A stretch of 64,000 nucleotides of DNA from an uncultured Clostridium sp. (GCA_902493795.1 CABUQZ010000005.1:384-64383), one strand, 5' to 3'. Shown: positions 1-10,966, counted from the first letter of the stretch. Notes: a model not told the origin generated them from the sequence alone. Numbers and translations are program-made.

Positions 1-89
1 ACCTAGAATATATGTTACTACGCTTACAATTAACATATAAGTTATTTCATATGTACTCCATATTTTACTCCAAAAATTATTATTAAATA

Positions 90-299
90 TTATTTTATTA
101 CTCTTATTTCAGTTAAAATATCAATTATTGCAGCAACAAACAAGAAAACTCTAACTACTACATAAAACAATATTTTCCCAAATAAAGATTCTGGAAGAGG
201 CTGTCTTTTGAGCAACATGTGATTATAAGAAAATTCCATAAATCTTTTAAAAAAAATTGTAATAATTATCAAAATAATATCAATTATAATTTTTATCAT
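90..299 (-). CDS. Small hydrophobic protein (69 aa, two predicted TM helices); candidate immunity or partner protein of the upstream Rhs toxin
   Basis: The ATG at 299 lies 3 nt after the Rhs TAG stop (303-305). The stretches MIKIIIDIILIIITIFF and FYVVVRVFLFVAAIIDIL are hydrophobic and separated by a charged loop. The position matches the immunity slot of polymorphic-toxin loci. No family recognised. Confidence 0.45.
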   Translation of the reverse strand: MIKIIIDIILIIITIFFKRFMEFSYNHMLLKRQPLPESLFGKILFYVVVRVFLFVAAIIDILTEIRVIK

Positions 300-302
300 T
301 GT

Positions 303-3300
303 CTATTCATCCCACTCTATAGTATATTCAACGCCATAATCAAAACCAACCGCTGTATTAAAGTTCATTTGACCATTATTAGAATACACAGGAGCATAAA
401 AATTGTAATTTAGTCCATTAAATCCACCACTTATCGATGAAGTGTATGGTGAATAATATCTTGGATAAACTAAATCAGTAAGATCTCTTATTTTGGTTTC
501 AAATTTAAATGAGGCATTTAATGACAAAGGGCCAAAAATGCTTGCAGATTCAGTTATTCCGGCTCCGAAACTAACAGATGATTTATTTATGTTTGAATTA
601 GGTGCTATTTCTCTAGTATAGTTTACAGAAGCATACGTTTTACCTGAACTATATGATGCGCCAACATTGCAAGTTAATTTGCTATTATCAATTATTTTAT
701 TAATTGAATAATAAGTTGGGCTTGGCTTTGCGGCTTTTCTTTTTTTATTTTTGATTGGTGGTTCAACATTTTTTACTCCATATTTATTTGCACTATAGTC
801 AAAAGTTGATTCAACAAAATTAACAGCTTCTTCAAGCAATCCTTCAAGGAAATCAAGTAAAAACCACTTTCCATTTTTATCTGAATGATTAATAAAATTA
901 TTAGCAGTATAAGCAAATAAGTTACATACCATAATACTTTGTTCTAAGTATATTAATCCATCAGCATTTAAAAACCTTCCCCACATCGGATTATAATATC
1001 GAGAATTTAAATAATAAAGTTCTGTTTCTTTATCATAATAGTATCCTCTATATCTAAACGGATTAACAATAGCTACATTAGATGGATTAGTTATTTCTTG
1101 ACCACAAGAATTCTTAATACTCAAAATGGTTCCCATTGAATCATACTCATAACGCGCAACTATCTGATAATTAGAGTCAATAATACCCACTATATCTCCC
1201 TGTATGTTCTTTAGATAATAATATACCATATTATTATATTTTAGTCCAATAATATCACCATCATCATATAAATAGTATATTATATTACCACCAGTTTTTT
1301 CATATATTATTAAATTATTCTCTATGAAATAGTCTGTATCCACCCCATTTATTGTTTTCTTTGTTCTAATTCCATTTATATTATATTTGTATGAAACTGA
1401 AATGTTACTATCTTTGTATGTATTCAATTGCCTACCATTTATCCATGTAAGCTTTTTACTTCCAATTGTCAAAGGATTTCCAATTTCATCATATGTTATT
1501 AATTCATCATTATATTTTGTTAATAGGTCTTCCCATGATGAATCATTATATTCATATGTATCAGTAGTAATACTTTCATTTGTAGATATATTTTTCTTAA
1601 CTTTTGTTAGAATATTTCCTTCGTTATCATAAGTATATTCCGTTTTAATATTATTTACATAATCTTCATCACTAATTAACTCATTATAATCATCATATTC
1701 ATAGTGATTTATTAGATTATTATTTAAATAGATATCGGTAATATTATATAACTTATCATACTTATATGAATACTTTTTATTTCCATTAGTAATTGATTTT
1801 ATTATTGCTGAAGTTCTGTTTCCAATTGAAAGATACTCATACTTTGTTTCATAGTTATTATTAATATTTTTATTAGTAACTCTTAATAATTCATCATAAG
1901 TGTATTTTATCTTTGTACTATCTAAATTAGATTCTAATACCATACCATCTTTATTAAATATATTTTCTATTATATGCGATTCATTATCAAGGCTTAGTTT
2001 TTGTTTTGTAATATTATTATCATTATCATAATAGTATTCAATATTAAAATTATTATTTTTCCTATCAGTTACTATATTATTCTCTTCATCTTCATAAGTA
2101 ATTGTATAATATCTAGTATCAGTGTATTTTTTTAATCTTTTATCTTCATCATACAAGAAAAATGACTCGCCATCATTTTCAGATAATCTATGTATATCCC
2201 CATTATTGTTATATAAATATTCATATTCATTATTATCTTTTTTTACTTTTTTTACTCGATCAAATTCATCATATTGAAAATTGATAACAGAATTATTCCC
2301 ATACGTAGAAGATAATAAATTTCCATTGTTTTCTTCATATGTATATGTAATTAAATTTCTGTTATTTATTTTAATGTTATTTTTATGTAGAAATTCATCG
2401 TATGTAAATTTATAGGTTTTGTTTCCTTGAATTATTTCTGACAACTGATTTTGGCTGTTATAATTATATTGTATTTCTTTATTACCTTGTTTTATTTTTG
2501 TTATCTGATTTTTATCATTATACAAGTATGATGTTTCTATTCCCTTTGCATTCGTTTTCTTCTCGACAAGTCCTTTTGTTTTATTTCTAGTATATTTTAT
2601 CTCATTTAACAAACTATCTTTAACACTTTCAACAAATCTTCCATCACTTGAATACATTGCTTCTTGTTGAATAAATAATCTTGAGGCATCTTCAAAATAG
2701 AACTCATACAAATAATTCTCTTCGATATCTGAATAATCACTTACAAACTCAAAAGTATTATCAACCCATTTTAAATATTTTTTATTATCTTTATCATCTA
2801 AAATATAAATGTGATAACTTGCATTTTGATTTTGTTCTATTTTAAACAAGCAGTTTCCAAGGGTATCAAGTATTATTTTATTATTTAACTCTACTAAATA
2901 TTTATTTGCTATTACAGCATCACTTATTTTGTATGAATCATCTATCTTTTCAACTTTAAAAGTTGTATTACTACAATAATCGTACTTTAATGTTAAATTA
3001 TTATCCTGTATTTTTAAGTATTTATTAGTTCCCTTTTGTCTAATCTTATAATATCCAGTTGTTATTTCTTCACTATAATCCTTTGAAATTTTAGTCTGAA
3101 TTGGATTTCCAAAATCATCATATACTACTTTATTTGAGATACCAGTTGATGAAATTGCTCTTATAACTCTATCTGTAATGTTATTATCATATTCAACCTT
3201 ATAATTTTTTCCTCTTGGATTTGTTGCACTAATTAGTTCATTATTTTTATCATAATTAAATACATCAGACTCTTTTATATCTTTAACTTGTGTTATATTT

Positions 3301-6300
3301 CCATATTCATCATATTCATATCTATTTGTTTTAATTTTCTTAAATAAAGAGAAATTAGTTAAATATAAATCACCTTGATCTCTTCCTTGATGTAGACGAA
3401 TTATAATTTTGTTATAATCTTTAATTGGAGCAAATAAAGCATAAAAATATTGCCAATTATCTTTATTACTATACAAAGGGTATGCTGGAACACATTGTTC
3501 TATCTCACCATCAACAGGTTTAAAATAAACACTCACTGTATTTCCAACAATTGATCCACTAGGATCATAACCAGTAGTTGGGTCAATTCCTGTTTCTACA
3601 CCATTATTTTTATACCAAAATCCCAAATAATATAAATCATCTTTCTTTCCTTTAACTTCTATTTCTTTTACAACGTCACTCATATTGTAAGATTGCATAT
3701 TTACTTTTAAGGCTTTATTACCATTGCTATCAATGTTAACAACTTCAAATACATCACTAACATTTGGTTCAACTTCAGTATCTAATGCAGAAGCAGTTAA
3801 ATTCCAGTTACTTGTTTCTTTTTTAAAATCTGGATTTTCTATTATGTTATAGTCATTTTCTATAACGCCTTTTTCTATTTTTATATCACCAATATATGTT
3901 GCACATGGTTCTTCATGAATTATTCTCATCATTAAATCAGTATCAACTGACCTATTAAATGTAAAAACAATTTTTTCATAGTCATCGTTCTTTTTAAATT
4001 CTTTTTCATATACTGTTTCATTTGTGTCAAATAAATAAAAACGAATCTTTGCTGATAATGTTGTTTTAACATATAAACTTACTGTATAATCTGTAATTTC
4101 ATCTAGCGAAAATCCTGTTAAAGAATTCTGAATTATATTATCACTTGCAAATTCTACTAAACTTACTCCATTAAAAGTTTCATCATAATGATCTGACATT
4201 CCCATATTATTTGAAAAAACTGTATAACCATCTAAATTAGCATAATTTGTTAATCCACACATGTTTTTTGAAAATTTTATAGGAATTGTATTTGATAATA
4301 TTTTATTCTTATTCTCACTTTCATTTCCATAAGTTCTTGTTATTGAATAAGCATCATTTATGTTAACTCCATCTGCCATACTATTTGAAGATATTAAATT
4401 ACCATAATAATTATAAATATTATTTGTAATTTTATTTTTATTATCGACTATTTTTGTGCTAAACAATTGATAATCAAGAGTAAAACTTTGACCTTCTTTA
4501 TTATTTAATCCATATTGTGTTACTTTTTTTACTTTCTTTGAATTTCCACTATAATAATCATAAACAATAGATAGCCCTGTAACATCTGTAATTTTTGTTA
4601 TTATATTATTTGTATCGTAATCAAATGTTGTTGTTCCTTCTTTGGTTACAATTGTCTTTAAATTATTATTTTCATAATTTAATATTGTTGTTTCGCTTGG
4701 TGATATAAAACTTATCTTATTAGTTTCATAAGAAATATTTATTTCATTATTATTAAAGTCAAGTATTTTAGTAATGTTATTATTAACGTTTCTTGTAATA
4801 TTTATTTCTTGATTACTAATGTTTTTAATTTTACTTAAATAATAAATGTTTCCATTTTTGGTAAAAATAGTACTATTTCCATTTTTATCTTTCATAGTGC
4901 AAGTTGTATCAAACAATTCTATTTCAAAATTTAAACCATCTTCATCTTTATATTTAGTTTCCAAAAGATAAAAATAGTGTATTGTACCATCACCATCAAC
5001 GTATTTTAACTTTTCATCGTTACCAATTGGAACTTTTTCAATTGTTTCATCGTAGGTTAATCTATATCCTTTTCCATAAATCGAGCTATTATTTGTTATA
5101 ACATCATTTGTGTTATATACAATTCCTACACTTGCTGGAAATACTCCTATTGTATTAGAAAGAGAAAATAAAGTTGTTAAGTTACCATTGAATGTATTTA
5201 CATAAGCAGTACCATTTGAAAATGACTGACTCATATAATCAAGATATGATTCTAAACCATTTTGATTTCTGTATTCAATTGTAAGAAGTGGTGCAAGGTC
5301 ACCTTCTCCAAAATTACTAGAAAAGAACATTGGTATCATAGTATTGATATATTCTTCTTTTGCTTGTTTAATCATTATTCCATAATTTGGACTTCCATTT
5401 AACCATCTTTTTACTAGTGATGTTATTAGACAATCATTAAAGCTTGATCTTATTACTGGTCTAAGTTCTGCTGGCACCACAGATAAGTCATATTCAAGAT
5501 AACTTCTACTAATATATGCAACATTTTCGACACTACTATTATAAGCATTATTCATATTGTTCCAATTAGCTTCACTTAAGGTCCAATCTTTTGTGACTTC
5601 ATGTATTGTAACTAATTTATCAGTGTTTTGAGAAGCTTCATCTTCTGTTAATTCTCTAGCTTCCTCTACTGCCATATATCCATATAAATTTAGTGTTGCT
5701 CTAATTACTTCATCACTTGTTCCTATTTCTGGAAGTACAAATTTTAATAAACTTCTATTAACTCTATCTTGATTATTTACTTTTTCTACACCAGCTTTTA
5801 AATAATCTTTATTATACCTTACATCATTTGTATCACCAGGATAGATATATGTATCATTTACTCCTTTATCATTATTCTCTAACGATGGATCTATAATAAC
5901 TGGGTACTTTCTATTGTTTTCATTAATCCATTCCTTATCAAATGATAAAGTTAAAATGTCATTTTCTATTTTATAAGATACATTGCTACACTCAGCACCA
6001 TCAGAGTCTTTCATATAAGGAACTATAAAAGTAAATACTGTTTCCCTTTCATTTTTACAAAACAAACTATTATTTTCAACATTTATTTCTAAGTTTGATT
6101 TTATCTCATACTCTACTTTTTCATTTTCTATTTTATCTTTTACAATTAAATTTTCTTTGACTCCAGAAAATGATAAAACGTATTCTAAATCTATGTTTGC
6201 AAAAATATTTTTGTATAATATCTTACTTATATTTTTAGTGTTCTTTTCTATTTCATACTCTTTTATATGTGTACATTTTGGAATTATTTCTAAATAATAG

Positions 6301-6530
6301 TCACCTTTTACATATTTAATTCCACTATTTGTTTTATTAAAAATTACTTTGTAATCATTTTCTTCGTTTTCAAATGAGTTGTTAGTTTCTTTTAATTCAT
6401 TACTTATTTCTTCATATTTTCCATTTTTCAGATAATGAACTTTTTCTCTAAATAACTGTACTTCGATATTTCCATTATCTTTTAGAAAATGTTTCTCATT
6501 TGGTTTTCTTTTGTCAATTAATTCTATCAT
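303..6530 (-). CDS. Rhs/YD-repeat polymorphic toxin (2075 aa) with a DNRLRE-like N-terminal domain, lectin-like inserts, an Rhs-associated core and an unrecognised C-terminal domain
   Basis: YD repeats are readable throughout (YEYDEYGNITQV, YKVEYDNNITDRV, VVYDDFGNPIQT, YLYNDKNQITKI, YTYDNEGNILTK). The core ends PFRYRGYYYDKETELYYLNSRYYNPMWGRFLNADG. An N-terminal LVTIHEVTKDWTLSEANWNNMNN-type segment is present. I moved the start from the ORF-track 6557 to the ATG at 6530, which has AGGTGG 4 nt upstream and sits 6 nt after the upstream stop. Confidence 0.9.
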   Translation of the reverse strand: MIELIDKRKPNEKHFLKDNGNIEVQLFREKVHYLKNGKYEEISNELKETNNSFENEENDYKVIFNKTNSGIKYVKGDYYLEIIPKCTHIKEYEIEKNTKNISKILYKNIFANIDLEYVLSFSGVKENLIVKDKIENEKVEYEIKSNLEINVENNSLFCKNERETVFTFIVPYMKDSDGAECSNVSYKIENDILTLSFDKEWINENNRKYPVIIDPSLENNDKGVNDTYIYPGDTNDVRYNKDYLKAGVEKVNNQDRVNRSLLKFVLPEIGTSDEVIRATLNLYGYMAVEEARELTEDEASQNTDKLVTIHEVTKDWTLSEANWNNMNNAYNSSVENVAYISRSYLEYDLSVVPAELRPVIRSSFNDCLITSLVKRWLNGSPNYGIMIKQAKEEYINTMIPMFFSSNFGEGDLAPLLTIEYRNQNGLESYLDYMSQSFSNGTAYVNTFNGNLTTLFSLSNTIGVFPASVGIVYNTNDVITNNSSIYGKGYRLTYDETIEKVPIGNDEKLKYVDGDGTIHYFYLLETKYKDEDGLNFEIELFDTTCTMKDKNGNSTIFTKNGNIYYLSKIKNISNQEINITRNVNNNITKILDFNNNEINISYETNKISFISPSETTILNYENNNLKTIVTKEGTTTFDYDTNNIITKITDVTGLSIVYDYYSGNSKKVKKVTQYGLNNKEGQSFTLDYQLFSTKIVDNKNKITNNIYNYYGNLISSNSMADGVNINDAYSITRTYGNESENKNKILSNTIPIKFSKNMCGLTNYANLDGYTVFSNNMGMSDHYDETFNGVSLVEFASDNIIQNSLTGFSLDEITDYTVSLYVKTTLSAKIRFYLFDTNETVYEKEFKKNDDYEKIVFTFNRSVDTDLMMRIIHEEPCATYIGDIKIEKGVIENDYNIIENPDFKKETSNWNLTASALDTEVEPNVSDVFEVVNIDSNGNKALKVNMQSYNMSDVVKEIEVKGKKDDLYYLGFWYKNNGVETGIDPTTGYDPSGSIVGNTVSVYFKPVDGEIEQCVPAYPLYSNKDNWQYFYALFAPIKDYNKIIIRLHQGRDQGDLYLTNFSLFKKIKTNRYEYDEYGNITQVKDIKESDVFNYDKNNELISATNPRGKNYKVEYDNNITDRVIRAISSTGISNKVVYDDFGNPIQTKISKDYSEEITTGYYKIRQKGTNKYLKIQDNNLTLKYDYCSNTTFKVEKIDDSYKISDAVIANKYLVELNNKIILDTLGNCLFKIEQNQNASYHIYILDDKDNKKYLKWVDNTFEFVSDYSDIEENYLYEFYFEDASRLFIQQEAMYSSDGRFVESVKDSLLNEIKYTRNKTKGLVEKKTNAKGIETSYLYNDKNQITKIKQGNKEIQYNYNSQNQLSEIIQGNKTYKFTYDEFLHKNNIKINNRNLITYTYEENNGNLLSSTYGNNSVINFQYDEFDRVKKVKKDNNEYEYLYNNNGDIHRLSENDGESFFLYDEDKRLKKYTDTRYYTITYEDEENNIVTDRKNNNFNIEYYYDNDNNITKQKLSLDNESHIIENIFNKDGMVLESNLDSTKIKYTYDELLRVTNKNINNNYETKYEYLSIGNRTSAIIKSITNGNKKYSYKYDKLYNITDIYLNNNLINHYEYDDYNELISDEDYVNNIKTEYTYDNEGNILTKVKKNISTNESITTDTYEYNDSSWEDLLTKYNDELITYDEIGNPLTIGSKKLTWINGRQLNTYKDSNISVSYKYNINGIRTKKTINGVDTDYFIENNLIIYEKTGGNIIYYLYDDGDIIGLKYNNMVYYYLKNIQGDIVGIIDSNYQIVARYEYDSMGTILSIKNSCGQEITNPSNVAIVNPFRYRGYYYDKETELYYLNSRYYNPMWGRFLNADGLIYLEQSIMVCNLFAYTANNFINHSDKNGKWFLLDFLEGLLEEAVNFVESTFDYSANKYGVKNVEPPIKNKKRKAAKPSPTYYSINKIIDNSKLTCNVGASYSSGKTYASVNYTREIAPNSNINKSSVSFGAGITESASIFGPLSLNASFKFETKIRDLTDLVYPRYYSPYTSSISGGFNGLNYNFYAPVYSNNGQMNFNTAVGFDYGVEYTIEWDE

Positions 6531-6538
6531 AAAACCAC

Positions 6539-7072
6539 CTACGCAGTTCTTTTCCATACATATACTGCTAAGTATGGTGGCATATTATTGTGTTCTTTAT
6601 CTCCTCCAGTATTATTAGTATTTTTATTTCCAGTACCAATATATGTACCATAATTAGAACCAACATTCATTAATACAGTTTTACCAATATTAGATAGTGA
6701 ATGATTATGTTGAGGAAGTTCATCAATTGTTAATTTATGTGCTGCTTCTCCACCGGTTTCTCCATTTTGATACGTATCACCACATGCTAGTAAAAAGCAA
6801 TCTTTTATTTGTTCCCATATTCCTCCAAAAAGTACACTTGGACTTGTTGCAGCTACTGACATATATATTGAACCAACTGGATATATTGCATTAAAATCCA
6901 AACCAGCTCCACTTTCTGTTGTTATCGATTTAACTATTAAATTCCCTTCACTATCTAAACTAAATTTATTATTTTTTGATGTAACACATCCTACATTTAA
7001 ATTATCTACCTCTAAGTTTGTGTTATCTCCATCTTTTGTAAAAGCTTCTACTATGTAATCATATTCATTCAT
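6539..7072 (-). CDS. Phage tail-collar domain protein (tail-fibre / MdpB-like), 177 aa
   Basis: The C-terminal half (IYPVGSIYMS...GGEAAHKLTIDELPQHNHS...GGDKEHNNMPPYLAVYVWKRTA) matches the tail-collar signature as I remember it. A strong RBS (AAAGGAGGAG) precedes the ATG. Confidence 0.8.
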   Translation of the reverse strand: MNEYDYIVEAFTKDGDNTNLEVDNLNVGCVTSKNNKFSLDSEGNLIVKSITTESGAGLDFNAIYPVGSIYMSVAATSPSVLFGGIWEQIKDCFLLACGDTYQNGETGGEAAHKLTIDELPQHNHSLSNIGKTVLMNVGSNYGTYIGTGNKNTNNTGGDKEHNNMPPYLAVYVWKRTA

Positions 7073-7362
7073 TTTACTACTCCTCCTTTTTATTCGAATA
7101 AATATTTCTTATTTTTTTACTTAGTTAACATCTCCTCCTATCTAGAAAAAAAATATCATATTGTATAGTAAAAATAACACACCAAATTAGTAGAATTTTA
7201 AATTTCCCAAAAATAGAGAGTAATTCTCCAAATAAGAGAGTTAGTTATTCAAAAAAAAGATGTATAATTAAAATTTATTATATTTTTATATTTTAAAATT
7301 AATATTTTTTACAACAATGTATAATCTTTTACATACTATATTAAAATTCTAATTAATCAAAA

Positions 7363-7390
7363 AAGACTAAAAAAGATGACTTTCGTCATC
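7363..7390 (-). terminator. Rho-independent terminator after xseB
   Basis: The minus strand reads GATGAC-GAAA-GTCATC followed by TTTTTT. Confidence 0.6.
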
Positions 7391-7453
7391 CCTATAAAAT
7401 AAATTAATTCATGAGTTTATTGTCTAACAACACTTTTTTGAAAAAAACTTGAA

Positions 7454-7684
7454 TTATTCTTCTATTTTGAAGTCTTCAAGTTTACCGTTTTCTTTTAAAA
7501 TTTTGTTTACGTTTTCTTCAGCATTTTTAAGTTTTTCATTACATGATTTAGATAAAGCCATTGCTTCAGTAAACTTGTTTATCGCGTCATCCAATGATAC
7601 CTCTCCACTTTCCAGACTTTTTACAATACTTTCAAGTTTAACAAGAGACTCTTCAAATGTTTCTTCTTCTTTTTTATTTGCCAT
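7454..7684 (-). CDS. xseB: Exodeoxyribonuclease VII small subunit
   Basis: A 76-aa helical protein with FEESLVKLESIVKSLESGEVSLDDAINKFTEA. RBS is AGGAGG. It lies directly downstream of xseA. Confidence 0.9.
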   Translation of the reverse strand: MANKKEEETFEESLVKLESIVKSLESGEVSLDDAINKFTEAMALSKSCNEKLKNAEENVNKILKENGKLEDFKIEE

Positions 7685-7693
7685 TTATACCTC

Positions 7694-8944
7694 CTAAATA
7701 ACTTCTACATTAACTTTTCCATCTTTAAGTTCTAACTCAAGATTATCTTTTTTCTTAATATCTTTAACACTAGAAATAACTTTATCATCTTTTCTTACTA
7801 CAGAATAACCTCTTTTAATAGTAAGCAATGGATTTAATACTTCAAGCTTACTTATTATCTTAAAGAAATCATTCTTATCTTTAGTAATTTTATTATTAAT
7901 TTCGTTATTAAGCTTCGTACATGTTAGTTCTAGTTTATTTTTATTATTAGCAATAATATTTTTAAAATCATTAACTAGTCTTTCGAATAAATTATCAAAT
8001 TTTTGTTCTTTTATTTCATATATTGTTATTGGATTTTTTAATACGTAGCTATTCTTTAATTTATTTACTCTTTCTTTTCTAATATTTACTATATTAGTAA
8101 TTCCATTAACTGTTCTTATTTCCAACTGATTTAAAAGTTTTACTATATCAGTAATATTTGGAACAGCCATTTCAGCAGCTCCTGTTGGAGTTGGAGCTCG
8201 TAAATCAGCTACAAAATCAGATATTGTAAAATCTATTTCATGTCCAACAGCAGATATAACAGGAATATCTAAGTCATATATTGCACGTGCTACTATTTCT
8301 TCATTAAAACACCATAAATCTTCAATAGATCCTCCACCACGTCCAACAATTAAAACATCTAAATCATAGTTTTTTGCAAGTTCTATGTTTTTAACTATAT
8401 CAGGTGCTGCTTCTTTTCCTTGTACTAACGAAGGAAATAATATAGTCTCACAAAGTGGCCATCTTCTTTTTAAAGTAGATAAAATGTCTTTAATAGCAGC
8501 TCCTGTTGGTGCAGTAATAATTCCAATACGATTAGGTATCTTTGGAATAGGCTTTTTATGTGCTTCATCAAACAAACCTTCTGCTTGTAGTTTCTTTTTT
8601 AACTGTTCAAATGCAATATAAAGATTTCCTAATCCATCTTCTAAAATAGAATCAACATATATTTGATATCCTCCAGTTGCTTCATAAACCGATACTTTTC
8701 CAGTTACTAAAACTTTCATTCCATCTTGAATATCAAACTTAACATCTTTTGCATAAGTACTAAACATCACTGCATTTATTCTTGAGTTTTCATCTTTAAT
8801 TGTGAAATAAAAATGTCCCCTAGAATGAGCTTTAAAATTAGATATCTCACCTTTTAAATATATCTTATTAAGATTTTGATCATTATCTATTTTATATTTT
8901 ATATATCTAGTTAATTGAGTAACTGTAATATAATTATTGTTCAT
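7694..8944 (-). CDS. xseA: Exodeoxyribonuclease VII large subunit
   Basis: An N-terminal OB-fold segment (ITVTQLTRYIKYKI...LKGEISNFKAHSRGHFYFTIKD) and a central GRGGGSIEDLWCFNEE motif are present. Confidence 0.9.
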   Translation of the reverse strand: MNNNYITVTQLTRYIKYKIDNDQNLNKIYLKGEISNFKAHSRGHFYFTIKDENSRINAVMFSTYAKDVKFDIQDGMKVLVTGKVSVYEATGGYQIYVDSILEDGLGNLYIAFEQLKKKLQAEGLFDEAHKKPIPKIPNRIGIITAPTGAAIKDILSTLKRRWPLCETILFPSLVQGKEAAPDIVKNIELAKNYDLDVLIVGRGGGSIEDLWCFNEEIVARAIYDLDIPVISAVGHEIDFTISDFVADLRAPTPTGAAEMAVPNITDIVKLLNQLEIRTVNGITNIVNIRKERVNKLKNSYVLKNPITIYEIKEQKFDNLFERLVNDFKNIIANNKNKLELTCTKLNNEINNKITKDKNDFFKIISKLEVLNPLLTIKRGYSVVRKDDKVISSVKDIKKKDNLELELKDGKVNVEVI

Positions 8945-9394: not shown

Positions 9395-10966
9395 TTATTT
9401 ATAAATATCGTATATTAATATTTCTCCATCTCTTTTTAAATTAGATTTTACATAATTTATAACTTTTTTTGGTATTTGTCCAGTAGTAAAAAGATCATCC
9501 TTTAACACAAGATAAATTGTATTTTTAGAATTTTTTATTTCGTTGATTAGACGCTCTTCACCATTTTTACCAAAGTTTCCCCTCATAAATAAATCATAGT
9601 CTTTATAATATATATCTTGAGGAAGATGGTACAATACTGCATCTTGAAATAAAATAATTACTTTAATCCCTTTTTCTTTCATTTCTTTTTCAAAAGAAAT
9701 AACATTATCTATTATATATAATGAATTATTAGAAATAACAACATAAGAAATATTACCATAATTATTATCAAGAACCACTGAATCTTTATTCTTTTCTAAA
9801 AGACAGTTAAAATAAAATACAAATGGATTAAAATAAAGTATTATCAAAAGACATATAACCCATATCAAAAAAATTCTTTTAATTATCTTAAGCTTAATTT
9901 TTCTATTGAAAAGAACTAATTTATCATACAAAGAATTAAATATCAAAATGGATATTGGAATAATTGATGGAAGTAAATGTGTTAAATCACTTATTGGATA
10001 AAAACAGGCGAAAGCTGGTAAAGAATAAAAAAGGACCAAAATATAAGTATAAGGATATAATTTATTTTTACTTTTTAATTGCTTATAGAATTTATAACAT
10101 ATATAAATAGCAGCAAAAGGAAATAAATAAGCTCTCCAATAAAGAATATATGCGTAGATTCCTCTATGCCTATTTATGGTAAATAATTCATCTAAAAAAT
10201 GGAAATAACTAACATAATTACCTTTAAAATCCTTAAGTCCTAAAACACAATAATCAATAAAAGAAGATAAACTATTAGTAAGAATTAAATACATTAAAAA
10301 GATAAGTATAGGAACAAAAACTCCCAATAATCTAAATAATATTTTCTTCATCTTACTATCTTTATCAAATAATAAAACTTTTAAAACAACAAAAAAGATA
10401 ACTATAAGTCCTATAGACTGTTTAGAAAGAATTGATAAAGCTGAACATATTCCAATAAGAAAATGAAACCAATAGTTATCTTTCTTCTTTCTATAAAGAA
10501 CAATCTCTAAATAGATAATAAATAGCAAAAAGAATATAGCAAAATAATTATATTCAAAATAAAAATTATAAATTAAAGTATGCATAAGCAAAAAAGATAA
10601 AAGAAAAATCTTAAATTTATCTAATTCTTTCCTACTTTCTATTAGAATTGATGAAATCTTAGAAAATAAAAACACTAAGCTTATTTTAAGAAAAGCCATA
10701 AATATTACATAAACTACTATTGAAGAGCCAAATACTTTTAACACTCCTCCAGTTAAAAAACACAAAAGAGGCGTTAAAACCATATTAAATCCAGTATAAG
10801 GAAGTACTCCTTTAGATATTTGTAATCCAAAATTATAATTCCAAAAGAAATCAAGTTTATTTCCATAAAAAGATAATTGTATAAATATATCAAATAAAAA
10901 AGAAAGAAAAAATATTAAAAAATAGAATAAAATTCTATTTTTTTCCTTAGTAAAAAGTTTATTCAT
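9395..10966 (-). CDS. Polytopic membrane protein, possibly a GT-C (ArnT/PMT-like) glycosyltransferase, with a soluble C-terminal domain
   Basis: There are about 12 hydrophobic segments, an N-terminal loop (FWNYNFGLQISKGVLPYTGFNM) and a C-terminal hydrophilic domain of about 130 aa. The start overlaps the ldh stop (ATGAATAA). The functional call is weak. Confidence 0.45.
   Translation of the reverse strand: MNKLFTKEKNRILFYFLIFFLSFLFDIFIQLSFYGNKLDFFWNYNFGLQISKGVLPYTGFNMVLTPLLCFLTGGVLKVFGSSIVVYVIFMAFLKISLVFLFSKISSILIESRKELDKFKIFLLSFLLMHTLIYNFYFEYNYFAIFFLLFIIYLEIVLYRKKKDNYWFHFLIGICSALSILSKQSIGLIVIFFVVLKVLLFDKDSKMKKILFRLLGVFVPILIFLMYLILTNSLSSFIDYCVLGLKDFKGNYVSYFHFLDELFTINRHRGIYAYILYWRAYLFPFAAIYICYKFYKQLKSKNKLYPYTYILVLFYSLPAFACFYPISDLTHLLPSIIPISILIFNSLYDKLVLFNRKIKLKIIKRIFLIWVICLLIILYFNPFVFYFNCLLEKNKDSVVLDNNYGNISYVVISNNSLYIIDNVISFEKEMKEKGIKVIILFQDAVLYHLPQDIYYKDYDLFMRGNFGKNGEERLINEIKNSKNTIYLVLKDDLFTTGQIPKKVINYVKSNLKRDGEILIYDIYK

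Follow-up and report, generated by a model that had tools for sequence, protein, structure and literature searches.

For the export and aiming of giant, signal-less Rhs toxins in Gram-positive bacteria, the described routes are Sec-dependent secretion plus wall anchoring, as in WapA, and type VII secretion (T7SS), as for LXG toxins. WapA of Streptococcus suis has a DNRLRE-type surface domain in its N-terminal region (PMC12704120). In Yersinia entomophaga, the Rhs-cage toxin YenTc has no signal peptide and is freed in a subpopulation of cells by the type 10 secretion system (T10SS), a phage-type lysis cassette of holin, endolysin, and spanin (PMC10847048, PMC10847046). The passages of Zhang et al. 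(2012; PMC3482391) that name tail-fiber repeats as the stalks of some toxins make no mention of holins. Our literature search found no description of fiber-tip/Rhs pairing, or of Rhs toxins linked to lysis cassettes, in Gram-positive bacteria. The locus described here, in which a phage tail-fiber-tip gene is paired with an Rhs toxin gene, lies at the left end of a 64,000-nucleotide stretch of DNA from an uncultured Clostridium sp. (GCA_902493795.1 CABUQZ010000005.1:384-64383). This whole stretch is called the window below.

The locus carries three genes, all on the minus strand, that are predicted to form one operon. These encode a small trimer-type fiber-tip (collar-like) protein of 177 amino acids (aa; positions 6539..7072), a signal-less Rhs/YD polymorphic toxin of 2075 aa with a rare, variable C-terminal toxin domain (303..6530), and a tightly coupled 69-aa protein with two transmembrane (TM) segments (90..299). 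The assignments combine open reading frame (ORF) calls with, respectively, a match to Pfam Gp10_C, matches to Rhs domains, and two hydrophobic segments. An earlier reading of this DNA, termed here the original prediction, had proposed the same three ORFs, including the two-TM mini-ORF, and all are real. On balance, we lean slightly toward viewing the locus as a phage-derived Rhs bacteriocin island, similar in design to colicin operons, the Clostridioides difficile pathogenicity locus (PaLoc), and T10SS, in which release would depend on lysis and the collar-like protein would serve as a swappable targeting subunit.

Conserved linkage of collar and Rhs genes

The original prediction held that the collar-like protein could be a targeting, adhesion, or export partner of the Rhs toxin. 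The key test of this idea, co-occurrence of the two genes in relatives, is strongly positive. Our linkage scan, in which segments of the window proteins were searched against one genome per species, returned 80 loci. Where the N-terminal ~55 residues of the collar protein were matched, an Rhs gene adjoins in 51 of 54 assessable loci, versus 0 of 26 loci in which only the C-terminal domain was matched. The latter loci encode long tail fibers or tandem small collar genes in ordinary prophage tail modules. In N-domain, DNRLRE domain, shell, and core, the linked Rhs proteins are built like the window protein, with identities of 30-60%, and the distance from collar stop to Rhs start is at most 55 nucleotides (nt) in 38 of 50 loci. 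Nearly all hosts are uncultured Bacilli, 'Tenericutes', or Erysipelotrichaceae, represented by genomes from animal and human guts. Across many uncultured gut Bacilli, the fiber-tip and Rhs genes are conserved together as a unit.

The two proteins also evolve in a modular manner, as judged from pairwise distances over 36 loci. Distances between collar N-domains track those between the N-terminal 1090 aa of the Rhs proteins (r 0.57-0.63), nearly as closely as these N-terminal Rhs segments correlate among themselves (r 0.63-0.73). No such correlation holds for the collar C-domain (r 0.15-0.39 throughout), even though it is encoded between the N-domain and the Rhs gene. The pattern, which is not proof of contact, would fit a protein that, like phage receptor-binding proteins, combines a conserved part for docking with a specificity part that is freely exchanged.

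Because the linkage is conserved in relatives and no recognized secretion signal is present, a functional partnership of the collar and Rhs proteins is the best reading. Thus, the partnership proposed by the original prediction stands; of the roles it offered, targeting or adhesion fits the data better and export fits less well.

Two further observations concern these loci. In nine of them, a gene for a 135-aa coiled-coil protein (cluster c10; L025 10588-10995 and 8 other loci) lies between the collar and Rhs genes. This protein has no family match, follows long collar proteins of 380-400 aa, and could be an assembly factor. Also, bins labeled Muribaculaceae, Bacteroides helcogenes, or Olsenella (L015, L024, L031-L033, L046-L048, L051) hold a low-GC, Bacilli-type locus, which probably reflects contamination or mislabeling of public metagenome-assembled genomes.

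Lysis genes and genomic contexts

Flanking ORFs of 50 Rhs loci were clustered and then annotated with profiles. Recurrent companions are holins, further small membrane proteins, peptidoglycan hydrolases, a 161-aa sigma factor of the sigma-70/extracytoplasmic function (ECF) type, and helix-turn-helix (HTH) regulators. Family matches include Phage_holin_4_1 (1.8e-39), Peptidase_M23 (3.1e-25), CW_7, and the holin and endolysin families of PHROGs. The hydrolases are of three unrelated kinds, namely two M23 types and NlpC/GH25 enzymes with CW_7 or LysM. The sigma factor scores above the cut-off of TIGR02937 and lies directly upstream of the pair in L172 and L173; 13 of the 50 loci have a sigma-like gene no more than 5 kb away from the pair.

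A hydrolase gene is located within 5 kb in 27 of the 50 Rhs loci, and a holin-like gene in 22. When loci with at least 3 kb on each side are considered, ~21 of 29 have a hydrolase. Lysin genes reach densities of 1.4 and 1.05 per 10 kb within 2.5 kb on either side of the unit, versus 0.2-0.43 further upstream; the corresponding densities of holin-like genes are 1.66 and 1.16 versus 0-0.14. Holin and endolysin genes are habitual neighbors of the pair, joined in some genomes by a dedicated sigma factor gene. No recurrent T7SS genes were detected in the 50 neighborhoods.

The pair stays together in at least four contexts. In L172 and L173, the sigma factor gene is followed by the collar, Rhs, and immunity genes, two small membrane protein genes, and an endolysin gene, with housekeeping genes on both sides. 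In L170 and nine other loci, a stand-alone set of HTH, membrane protein, holin, and M23 lysin genes precedes the collar, Rhs, and immunity genes, which are followed by a recombinase gene. In L168, L007, and L012, conjugation genes of the VirB4/TraG type and their hydrolase gene precede the collar, Rhs, and immunity genes, and a holin and a lysin gene follow. Finally, in L035-37 and the viral contigs L178 and L179, a complete prophage tail module leads into genes for a 650-aa collar-bearing fiber, a holin, a lysin, and then the collar, Rhs, and immunity proteins, with only 5 nt between lysin and collar genes. A gene-by-gene check revealed no capsid, terminase, or tail-tube genes within 10 kb of L170, L172/L173, or the window locus.

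The main rival explanation is that this arrangement is inherited synteny. According to this explanation, the collar gene is the last tail-fiber gene of a decayed prophage, the Rhs-immunity pair is a moron, a cargo gene inserted between the tail and lysis genes, the lysis genes are leftovers, and the proteins have no joint function. Consistent with it, small collar genes of prophages often occur in tandem just 5' of holin and lysin genes (L052, L060, L061, L065, L071), the lysis genes of the window lineage are pseudogenes, as decay predicts, and mycobacterial prophages are known to carry polymorphic toxin cassettes. However, the pair survives where every other tail gene is gone, and the lysis cassette lies upstream or downstream according to the locus and carries three unrelated lysin types. 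In the sole type of complete prophage, the pair follows the lysin gene, and the phage has its own 650-aa collar-bearing fiber. Moreover, Rhs genes are associated with the collar N-domain specifically, and this domain co-varies with the Rhs N-module whereas the intervening C-domain does not. Because four contexts retain the unit, the association is N-domain specific, and the co-variation is asymmetric, inherited synteny is weakened, and we consider it unlikely as a full account of these loci.

Degenerate lysis genes beside the window locus

The same locus, 100% identical at the protein level, is present on many gut-metagenome contigs that extend past window position 1. A decayed holin gene, whose first 12 codons (MLIVSVVTYILG) occupy window positions 36..1 on the minus strand, continues past the left edge. 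In a tblastn comparison with the closest relative, L168, whose 99-aa holin is intact, the window locus is 70% identical over the first 40 aa of that holin and is then disrupted. An endolysin remnant (NlpC-like/CW_7), truncated and frameshifted, is situated ~120 nt past the edge. Compared with the intact 301-aa L168 enzyme, the remnant is 89% identical from residue 49 onward, lacks the first ~48 residues, and has a frameshift near residue 217. The L168 proteins match the holin (2.3e-6) and endolysin (1.6e-19) families of PHROGs. In the window lineage, both holin and endolysin are pseudogenes.

The original prediction had described a stand-alone cassette in DNA free of lysis genes. Neither description holds past the window edge, since the locus continues past position 1 into holin-endolysin remains and the holin pseudogene begins inside the window. 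Continuation to the left into a prophage tail module, which the same prediction had considered, is not seen. Instead, the island sits between housekeeping genes, namely xseAB/nusB at one end and either SpoIVB/HrcA or UvrC at the opposite end, and on the extending contigs no prophage structural genes (capsid, terminase, portal, tail tube, or tape measure) adjoin the window locus.

Past window position 1, from ~17.6 kb onward, the contigs fall into two strain-level arrangements, which separate L002-L005 from L001/L006. One arrangement continues downstream with SpoIVB/Bax1-I/HrcA, and the other with NTP-transferase/Impact/UvrC and a further-truncated lysin remnant; L001 and L006 are missing more of the endolysin remnant and have other genes after it. 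A rearrangement breakpoint falls inside the dead endolysin gene.

The fiber-tip protein

The 177-aa protein matches Pfam Gp10_C (PF21939) with an E-value of 4.8e-18 and 66.9 bits, against a gathering cut-off of 27. It also matches tail and tail-fiber families of PHROGs, and comparison of its profile with the Protein Data Bank (PDB) retrieves T4 gp10 (2fkk, 1.3e-5) and 7z47_I (2.2e-5). The "tail-collar" label of the original prediction is thus approximate, as Pfam Collar (PF07484) yielded no match even at E<=10 and left Gp10_C as the only family reported. Work on the T4 baseplate relates the gp10_C fold to the gp12 collar fold.

Residues 1-55 constitute the conserved Rhs-linked N-domain, and residues ~60-177 correspond to the T4 gp10 C-terminal-like domain. 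In family alignments, the C-domain has invariant HxH and HNNMPP motifs and a hypervariable insert. The family comprises 7617 proteins at E<=1e-3, mostly of 180-210 aa. In related Bacilli prophages, four to eight small collar genes (~125-210 aa) are arrayed in tandem just 5' of the holin and lysin genes (L060 6970-10850; L061 8514-10420; L071 324-3070), and these may encode alternative receptor-binding tips.

The Rhs protein

The 2075-aa ORF is shared by public gene calls, for which a precomputed match to TEN_YD-shell (PF25023; E <= 1e-5) is recorded. The RHS_repeat, Rhs-associated core, and DNRLRE families to which the original prediction had pointed are all matched: RHS_repeat PF05593 at 9.3e-17, DNRLRE at 7e-21, and Rhs_assc_core TIGR03696 at 1.1e-15, together with YD_repeat TIGR01643 at 8.5e-10. 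The protein begins with a DUF7948-like N-domain (aa 14-215; DUF7948, 1e-7) and a DNRLRE/CBM96 domain (aa 226-419; CBM96, 5e-7), which together make up a phage-tail-like module recognized by profile matches (5274..6491, minus strand). RHS/YD repeats extend from aa ~420, with an insert at ~760-1090, and are followed by the Rhs-associated core (aa 1818-1887) and a C-terminal domain of ~150 aa that matches no family.

The profile of the N-domain matches the first 220 aa of gp18 of Bacillus phage PBC1 (hhalign 99.2%, E 3.2e-19). This phage protein is a virion structural protein whose gene lies directly 3' of the tape measure gene, and it carries a CBM96 domain and has no RHS repeats. Given this homology, the Rhs protein is a chimera in which a phage tail-tip module is joined to a toxin cage. 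The N-domain has no profile match in PDB and no PHROG match. Judged by profile comparison, both the fiber tip and the Rhs N-module are of phage-tail ancestry.

The same homology could be taken to mean that the collar and Rhs proteins are structural tail-tip components of a temperate phage or phage-like particle that displays or injects the toxin, and that the window island is a dead fragment of such a phage, all the more so as a tail module ends with the pair in two IMG/VR contigs and three genomes. In those prophages, however, the pair comes after the lysis cassette, outside the structural block. Additional observations point away from a virion-borne device: PBC1 gp18 has no RHS repeats, and the structural genes sought within 10 kb of L170, L172/L173, and the window locus are missing. 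Also, the Rhs N-domain is found in only 4 of 2.9 million IMG/VR contigs. A scan of IMG/VR with the collar alignment recovered only long tail fibers that share the C-domain, and none of the best 80 viral matches has an Rhs gene. We therefore regard a virion-borne device as very improbable.

A bacteriocin island remains the reading we favor, and release by lysis would accord with the apparent absence of secretion signals from both proteins. As the original prediction had stated, the Rhs protein has no signal peptide, in that a Kyte-Doolittle scan of aa 1-225 identified no hydrophobic segment, and no LXG/WXG-type domain, in that no LXG match was obtained at E<=10. The same type of scan finds no hydrophobic segment in the collar protein. 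The Rhs N-terminus is charged and is conserved in 23 homologs (consensus ELIxKRKPREKHFL). Searches for PAAR or other secretion domains were likewise negative even at E<=10, and Pfam has no matching cell-wall binding domain (CWB2, LysM) for aa 1-450/744-1277 at E<=10 or for the whole protein at E<=0.01.

On these results, several known types of Rhs protein were rejected. A Sec-dependent, wall-associated protein of the WapA type is opposed by the missing hydrophobic N-terminal segment and the missing wall-binding domain; DNRLRE/CBM96 is present instead. An LXG toxin of T7SSb is opposed by the lack of an LXG match at that threshold and of a recurrent T7SS cluster in the 50 neighborhoods or in the Pfam-annotated flanks. 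The window protein has no PAAR or DUF6531-type match and its hosts belong to the Bacillota, which have a single membrane, both of which speak against a type VI secretion system (T6SS) effector. Finally, a Tc toxin (TcA/TcB/TcC) was rejected in that no TcA partner, SpvB domain, or TcdB_toxin_midN domain was detected in the protein or its neighbors.

The lack of a signal peptide on either protein could also mean that the collar protein, acting as chaperone or adaptor, passes the Rhs protein on to an export route of another kind (T7SS-like, a conjugative type IV secretion system [T4SS], or a non-lytic holin) and has no part in targeting. The tight coupling of the two genes is in line with this possibility, as are the VirB4/TraG-type conjugation genes that adjoin several islands and the non-lytic, holin-dependent export that has been proposed for large clostridial toxins (PMC9527704, PMC3369941). 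Against it, LXG, WXG, and PAAR domains are absent, and T7SS genes do not recur among the 50 neighborhoods. Conjugation genes are present in a minority of loci only, for which reason we rejected a conjugative T4SS as the exporter. Moreover, the collar C-domain is a phage receptor-binding-type fold. Because it has a hypervariable insert and recombines independently of the Rhs gene, this domain behaves as a specificity module, not as a chaperone. An export partner is, in our estimation, improbable.

Some variants of this Rhs gene in the population are frameshifted or split (L005 10543-16769; P0131-P0134), giving products of 100+1920 aa or 374+1689 aa, and most are intact at 2075 aa. Unverified "Bacteriophage sp." records from human fecal viromes include Rhs proteins of 2178 aa (L175 8722-15258) and 3118 aa (L176 2597-11953), which have a related N-domain and end in nuclease tips of the HNH or EC869-like kind.

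The toxin tip and the 69-aa protein

The C-terminal toxin domain (aa 1927-2075; 306..752, minus strand) was delimited by its position after the Rhs core-end motif NADGL...NLFAYTANNF..DKNGK, which was read by eye. It is Gly/Ser-rich, ends in YTIEWDE, and is probably beta-rich. Neither Pfam nor NCBIfam has a family for this tip (aa 1886-2075 / 1927-2075), and a word-indexed homolog search retrieved nothing. An exhaustive HMMER search among 1.84 billion representative proteins recovered only five relatives, two of which are C-terminal pieces of Rhs proteins that share the core-end motif. Because it recurs at the C terminus of other Rhs fragments, the tip is a genuine but rare Rhs tip.

Among 45 homologous Rhs proteins, the C-terminal 185 aa show no conservation, and the mini-ORF is likewise not conserved across the loci. 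At least 21 groups of tips are found in ~40 loci, and the ORF after the Rhs gene changes with the tip group (cluster c12 five times, c88 twice, c19 twice). Such co-variation of tip and next ORF is the signature of polymorphic toxin/immunity pairs. In the window, the next ORF encodes the 69-aa protein, with hydrophobic segments at aa 1-21 and 38-68 (Kyte-Doolittle) and a charged end, and this putative protein is most likely the cognate immunity protein. A membrane-bound immunity protein, in turn, suggests that the toxin might act at or on the membrane.

Holins can look similar, and the 69-aa ORF might instead be a class II holin, a surviving release factor. Its size, its two TM segments, and its charged end are holin-like, and it is directly upstream of the lysis-gene remnants. 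However, no holin-family match for it is found in Pfam, NCBIfam, or PHROGs, and in L168 the corresponding place is taken by a different 230-aa multi-TM ORF, after which that locus has its own 99-aa holin. Two homologs that were inspected are ~69-72% identical over residues 16-69 and reside in arrays of small ORFs on a mobilizable element with a serine recombinase and a relaxase, with no Rhs or lysin gene nearby. This setting fits an orphan immunity gene better than a holin. The co-variation of next ORF and tip across the family also opposes this alternative, to which we give little credence.

One such array (L181 5259-9285), in which the homolog is accompanied by a serine recombinase, a NikA-like protein, and a relaxase, resembles mobile orphan-immunity islands.

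Organization and borders of the island

On the minus strand, the xseA-xseB operon and its intrinsic terminator are followed by a noncoding gap and then by the closely packed collar, Rhs, and 69-aa ORFs. The terminator (7393..7372) has a 9-bp stem, a GAAA loop, and a T-run. It lies directly after xseB, is the sole terminator-like site in positions 1..7800, and marks the upstream border of the island. The gap of ~300 nt (7073..7371), judged by inspection to be the leader or promoter region of the collar-Rhs operon, has counterparts of 150-350 nt 5' of the collar gene in most relatives.

Within the operon, the collar stop codon TAG (6541..6539) overlaps the AGGTGG ribosome-binding site of the Rhs gene (6540..6535), and the Rhs stop codon TAG (305..303) is followed 3 nt later by the ATG of the 69-aa ORF, at 299. 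Both junctions, as well as the hairpin/T-run terminator and the noncoding gap toward xseB, agree with the original prediction. That prediction was also correct that the collar stop closely precedes the Rhs ATG at 6530, but the spacing is 8 nt by coordinates and not 6. An in-frame ATG at 6557 would add nine residues to the Rhs protein, giving 2084 aa and overlapping the end of the collar gene; public gene calls take 6530.

The leader contains an 18-nt direct repeat (7204-7221 and 7224-7241; coding strand ACTCTCTTATTTGGAGAA and ACTCTCTATTTTTGGGAA) located ~130-170 nt 5' of the collar ATG. Among the relatives, only the closest, L168, has a similar motif upstream of its collar gene, where it occurs twice and inverted. 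This repeat may be an operator or the mark of an invertible segment. No convincing sigma-70 promoter stands out in the island leader, and k-mer counts 5' of collar genes across relatives yielded only A/T-rich words and no shared promoter motif. The GC content of the island, ~25%, is that of the rest of the window, and no tRNA integration site was found near it.

The original prediction had reported no T7SS, T6SS, or capsid genes anywhere in the 64 kb; for the other 57 kb, our analysis covered ORF size, the largest other ORF having at most 884 aa, and a search that found no relevant sigma factor, holin, or lysin homologs. A 523-aa ORF at 9395-10966, between a malate/lactate dehydrogenase-like gene and nusB, has no Pfam match recorded on any public contig.

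Proposed mechanism

The following sequence of events could explain these findings. The collar-Rhs complex would be made in the cytoplasm, because neither protein has a secretion signal, and would be released when a subpopulation of producers lyses by the action of the adjacent holin/endolysin cassette. Outside the cell, the fiber tip would dock through its N-terminal ~55 residues on the phage-tail-like Rhs N-module. The swappable collar C-domain and the carbohydrate-binding modules of the Rhs protein would then recognize the surface of a target cell, after which the encapsulated C-terminal toxin would be delivered. Kin would be protected by the 69-aa protein. The window organism, having lost its own release device, might use other lysis routes, or its island may be on the way to decay.

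A number of points weigh against this mechanism. Gene neighborhoods are the source from which lysis-dependent release, physical contact of collar and Rhs in a complex, and targeting have all been deduced, and both the activity of the toxin and the immunity role of the 69-aa ORF are predictions. About one fourth of the well-flanked loci have no lysin within reach, and in the window lineage the lysis genes are broken, yet collar and Rhs are intact in most samples; for both reasons, lysis genes are not indispensable. The lysin and holin queries behind the counts and densities were derived from the same loci, and the holin-like set includes small membrane proteins that match no holin family (c11, c21). 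Prophages of these bacteria normally have their small collar genes immediately ahead of the lysis cassette, and part of the collar-Rhs-lysis association could accordingly be inherited synteny. The AlphaFold2 model of the collar monomer is mediocre (predicted local distance difference test score 69, predicted TM-score 0.37), and a Foldseek search of PDB with this model gave nothing at E<=0.001, although the top-ranked matches are T4 gp10. Elsewhere, homologs of the 69-aa ORF have no matching toxin beside them. Finally, nearly all relatives are metagenome-assembled genomes.

The pattern recurs clearly and in many genomes, but all of it comes from comparing the genomes of uncultured organisms, and the release module of the window copy is dead.

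A bolder proposal, which we offer tentatively as a possibility that we would not yet bet on, is that Gram-positive gut bacteria make a new class of diffusible, lysis-released Rhs bacteriocins from three recycled phage parts. A trimeric tip of swappable specificity would be plugged, via its private 55-residue N-domain, into the baseplate-like Rhs N-module, and a sigma-controlled holin-endolysin cassette would sacrifice a subpopulation of cells and so free a complex of ~240 kDa. Such modules would be spread by prophages and conjugative elements.

Comparison with known systems

The C-terminal ~120 aa of the 177-aa protein match the C-terminal domain of T4 gp10 and fiber tips by sequence profile. 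The protein described here differs in being free-standing, at ~180 aa, with a private N-terminal domain of 55 aa, and in being encoded with an Rhs toxin and not with a baseplate.

WapA of Bacillus subtilis and S. suis resembles the Rhs protein in its large YD-repeat cage, its Rhs-associated core, its variable C-terminal toxin, and its downstream immunity gene. However, WapA carries a Sec signal peptide along with a wall-binding domain, is anchored to the wall, and is contact-dependent. The present family has neither signal peptide nor wall anchor, and has a phage-tail-like N-domain, an obligatory fiber-tip partner gene, and lysis genes nearby.

YD-repeat toxins of the APSE phage of Hamiltonella defensa and prophage toxins of Mycobacterium abscessus are likewise cargo cassettes located near phage lysis genes or prophage ends (PMC8579659). 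Their hosts and routes are different, and involve eukaryotic targets or ESX-dependent export. We know of no fiber-tip partner described for these toxins.

PaLoc of C. difficile (TcdR/TcdE/TcdL) combines a very large signal-less toxin with a phage-derived holin and an endolysin or its remnant (PMC6200909, PMC3369941), as the present loci do. A small alternative sigma factor in some relatives and decay of the endolysin are further similarities. In contrast to the host-aimed glucosylating toxins of PaLoc, the toxin here takes the form of an Rhs cage whose tips are polymorphic and which comes with immunity genes, and for this reason is probably antibacterial; it also has a fiber-tip partner. The sigma factor found here is placed in the sigma-70/ECF superfamily, an assignment that does not reach down to the TcdR group.

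With T10SS and the Tc toxins, the family shares a signal-less Rhs-cage toxin, here in a predicted complex, beside a phage-type lysis cassette. The Yersinia system comes from a Gram-negative bacterium, acts on insects, and includes a TcA translocator. Here, by contrast, there are no TcA, SpvB, or TcB-type domains, the partner is a fiber tip of ~180 aa, and immunity genes are present. Colicin and S-pyocin operons have the same order of toxin, immunity, and lysis genes, as well as swappable receptor-binding and killing modules, and their release kills the producer. Their proteins are unrelated to those described here, in which the proposed receptor binder is a separate, phage-type protein and the toxin would be encapsulated in an Rhs shell.

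If the proposed mechanism is correct, then phage receptor-binding proteins can be reused to aim a protein toxin without a tail, and a swappable binder joined to a toxin that is swappable as well would be a natural scaffold for engineered narrow-spectrum antibacterials. The module is widespread in uncultured, small-genome Bacilli of human and animal guts, whose interbacterial warfare is almost a blank. Our analysis also carries a warning for annotators, in that a "tail fiber + lysin" beside a huge ORF need not mean a prophage remnant. By analogy, the logic of the module appears to be that of PaLoc, T10SS, and colicins, without homology to the toxin of any of them. The fiber-tip/Rhs/lysis module would then constitute a third route for giant Rhs toxins of Gram-positive bacteria, parallel to the lysis-dependent strategies of colicins, PaLoc, and T10SS/Tc.

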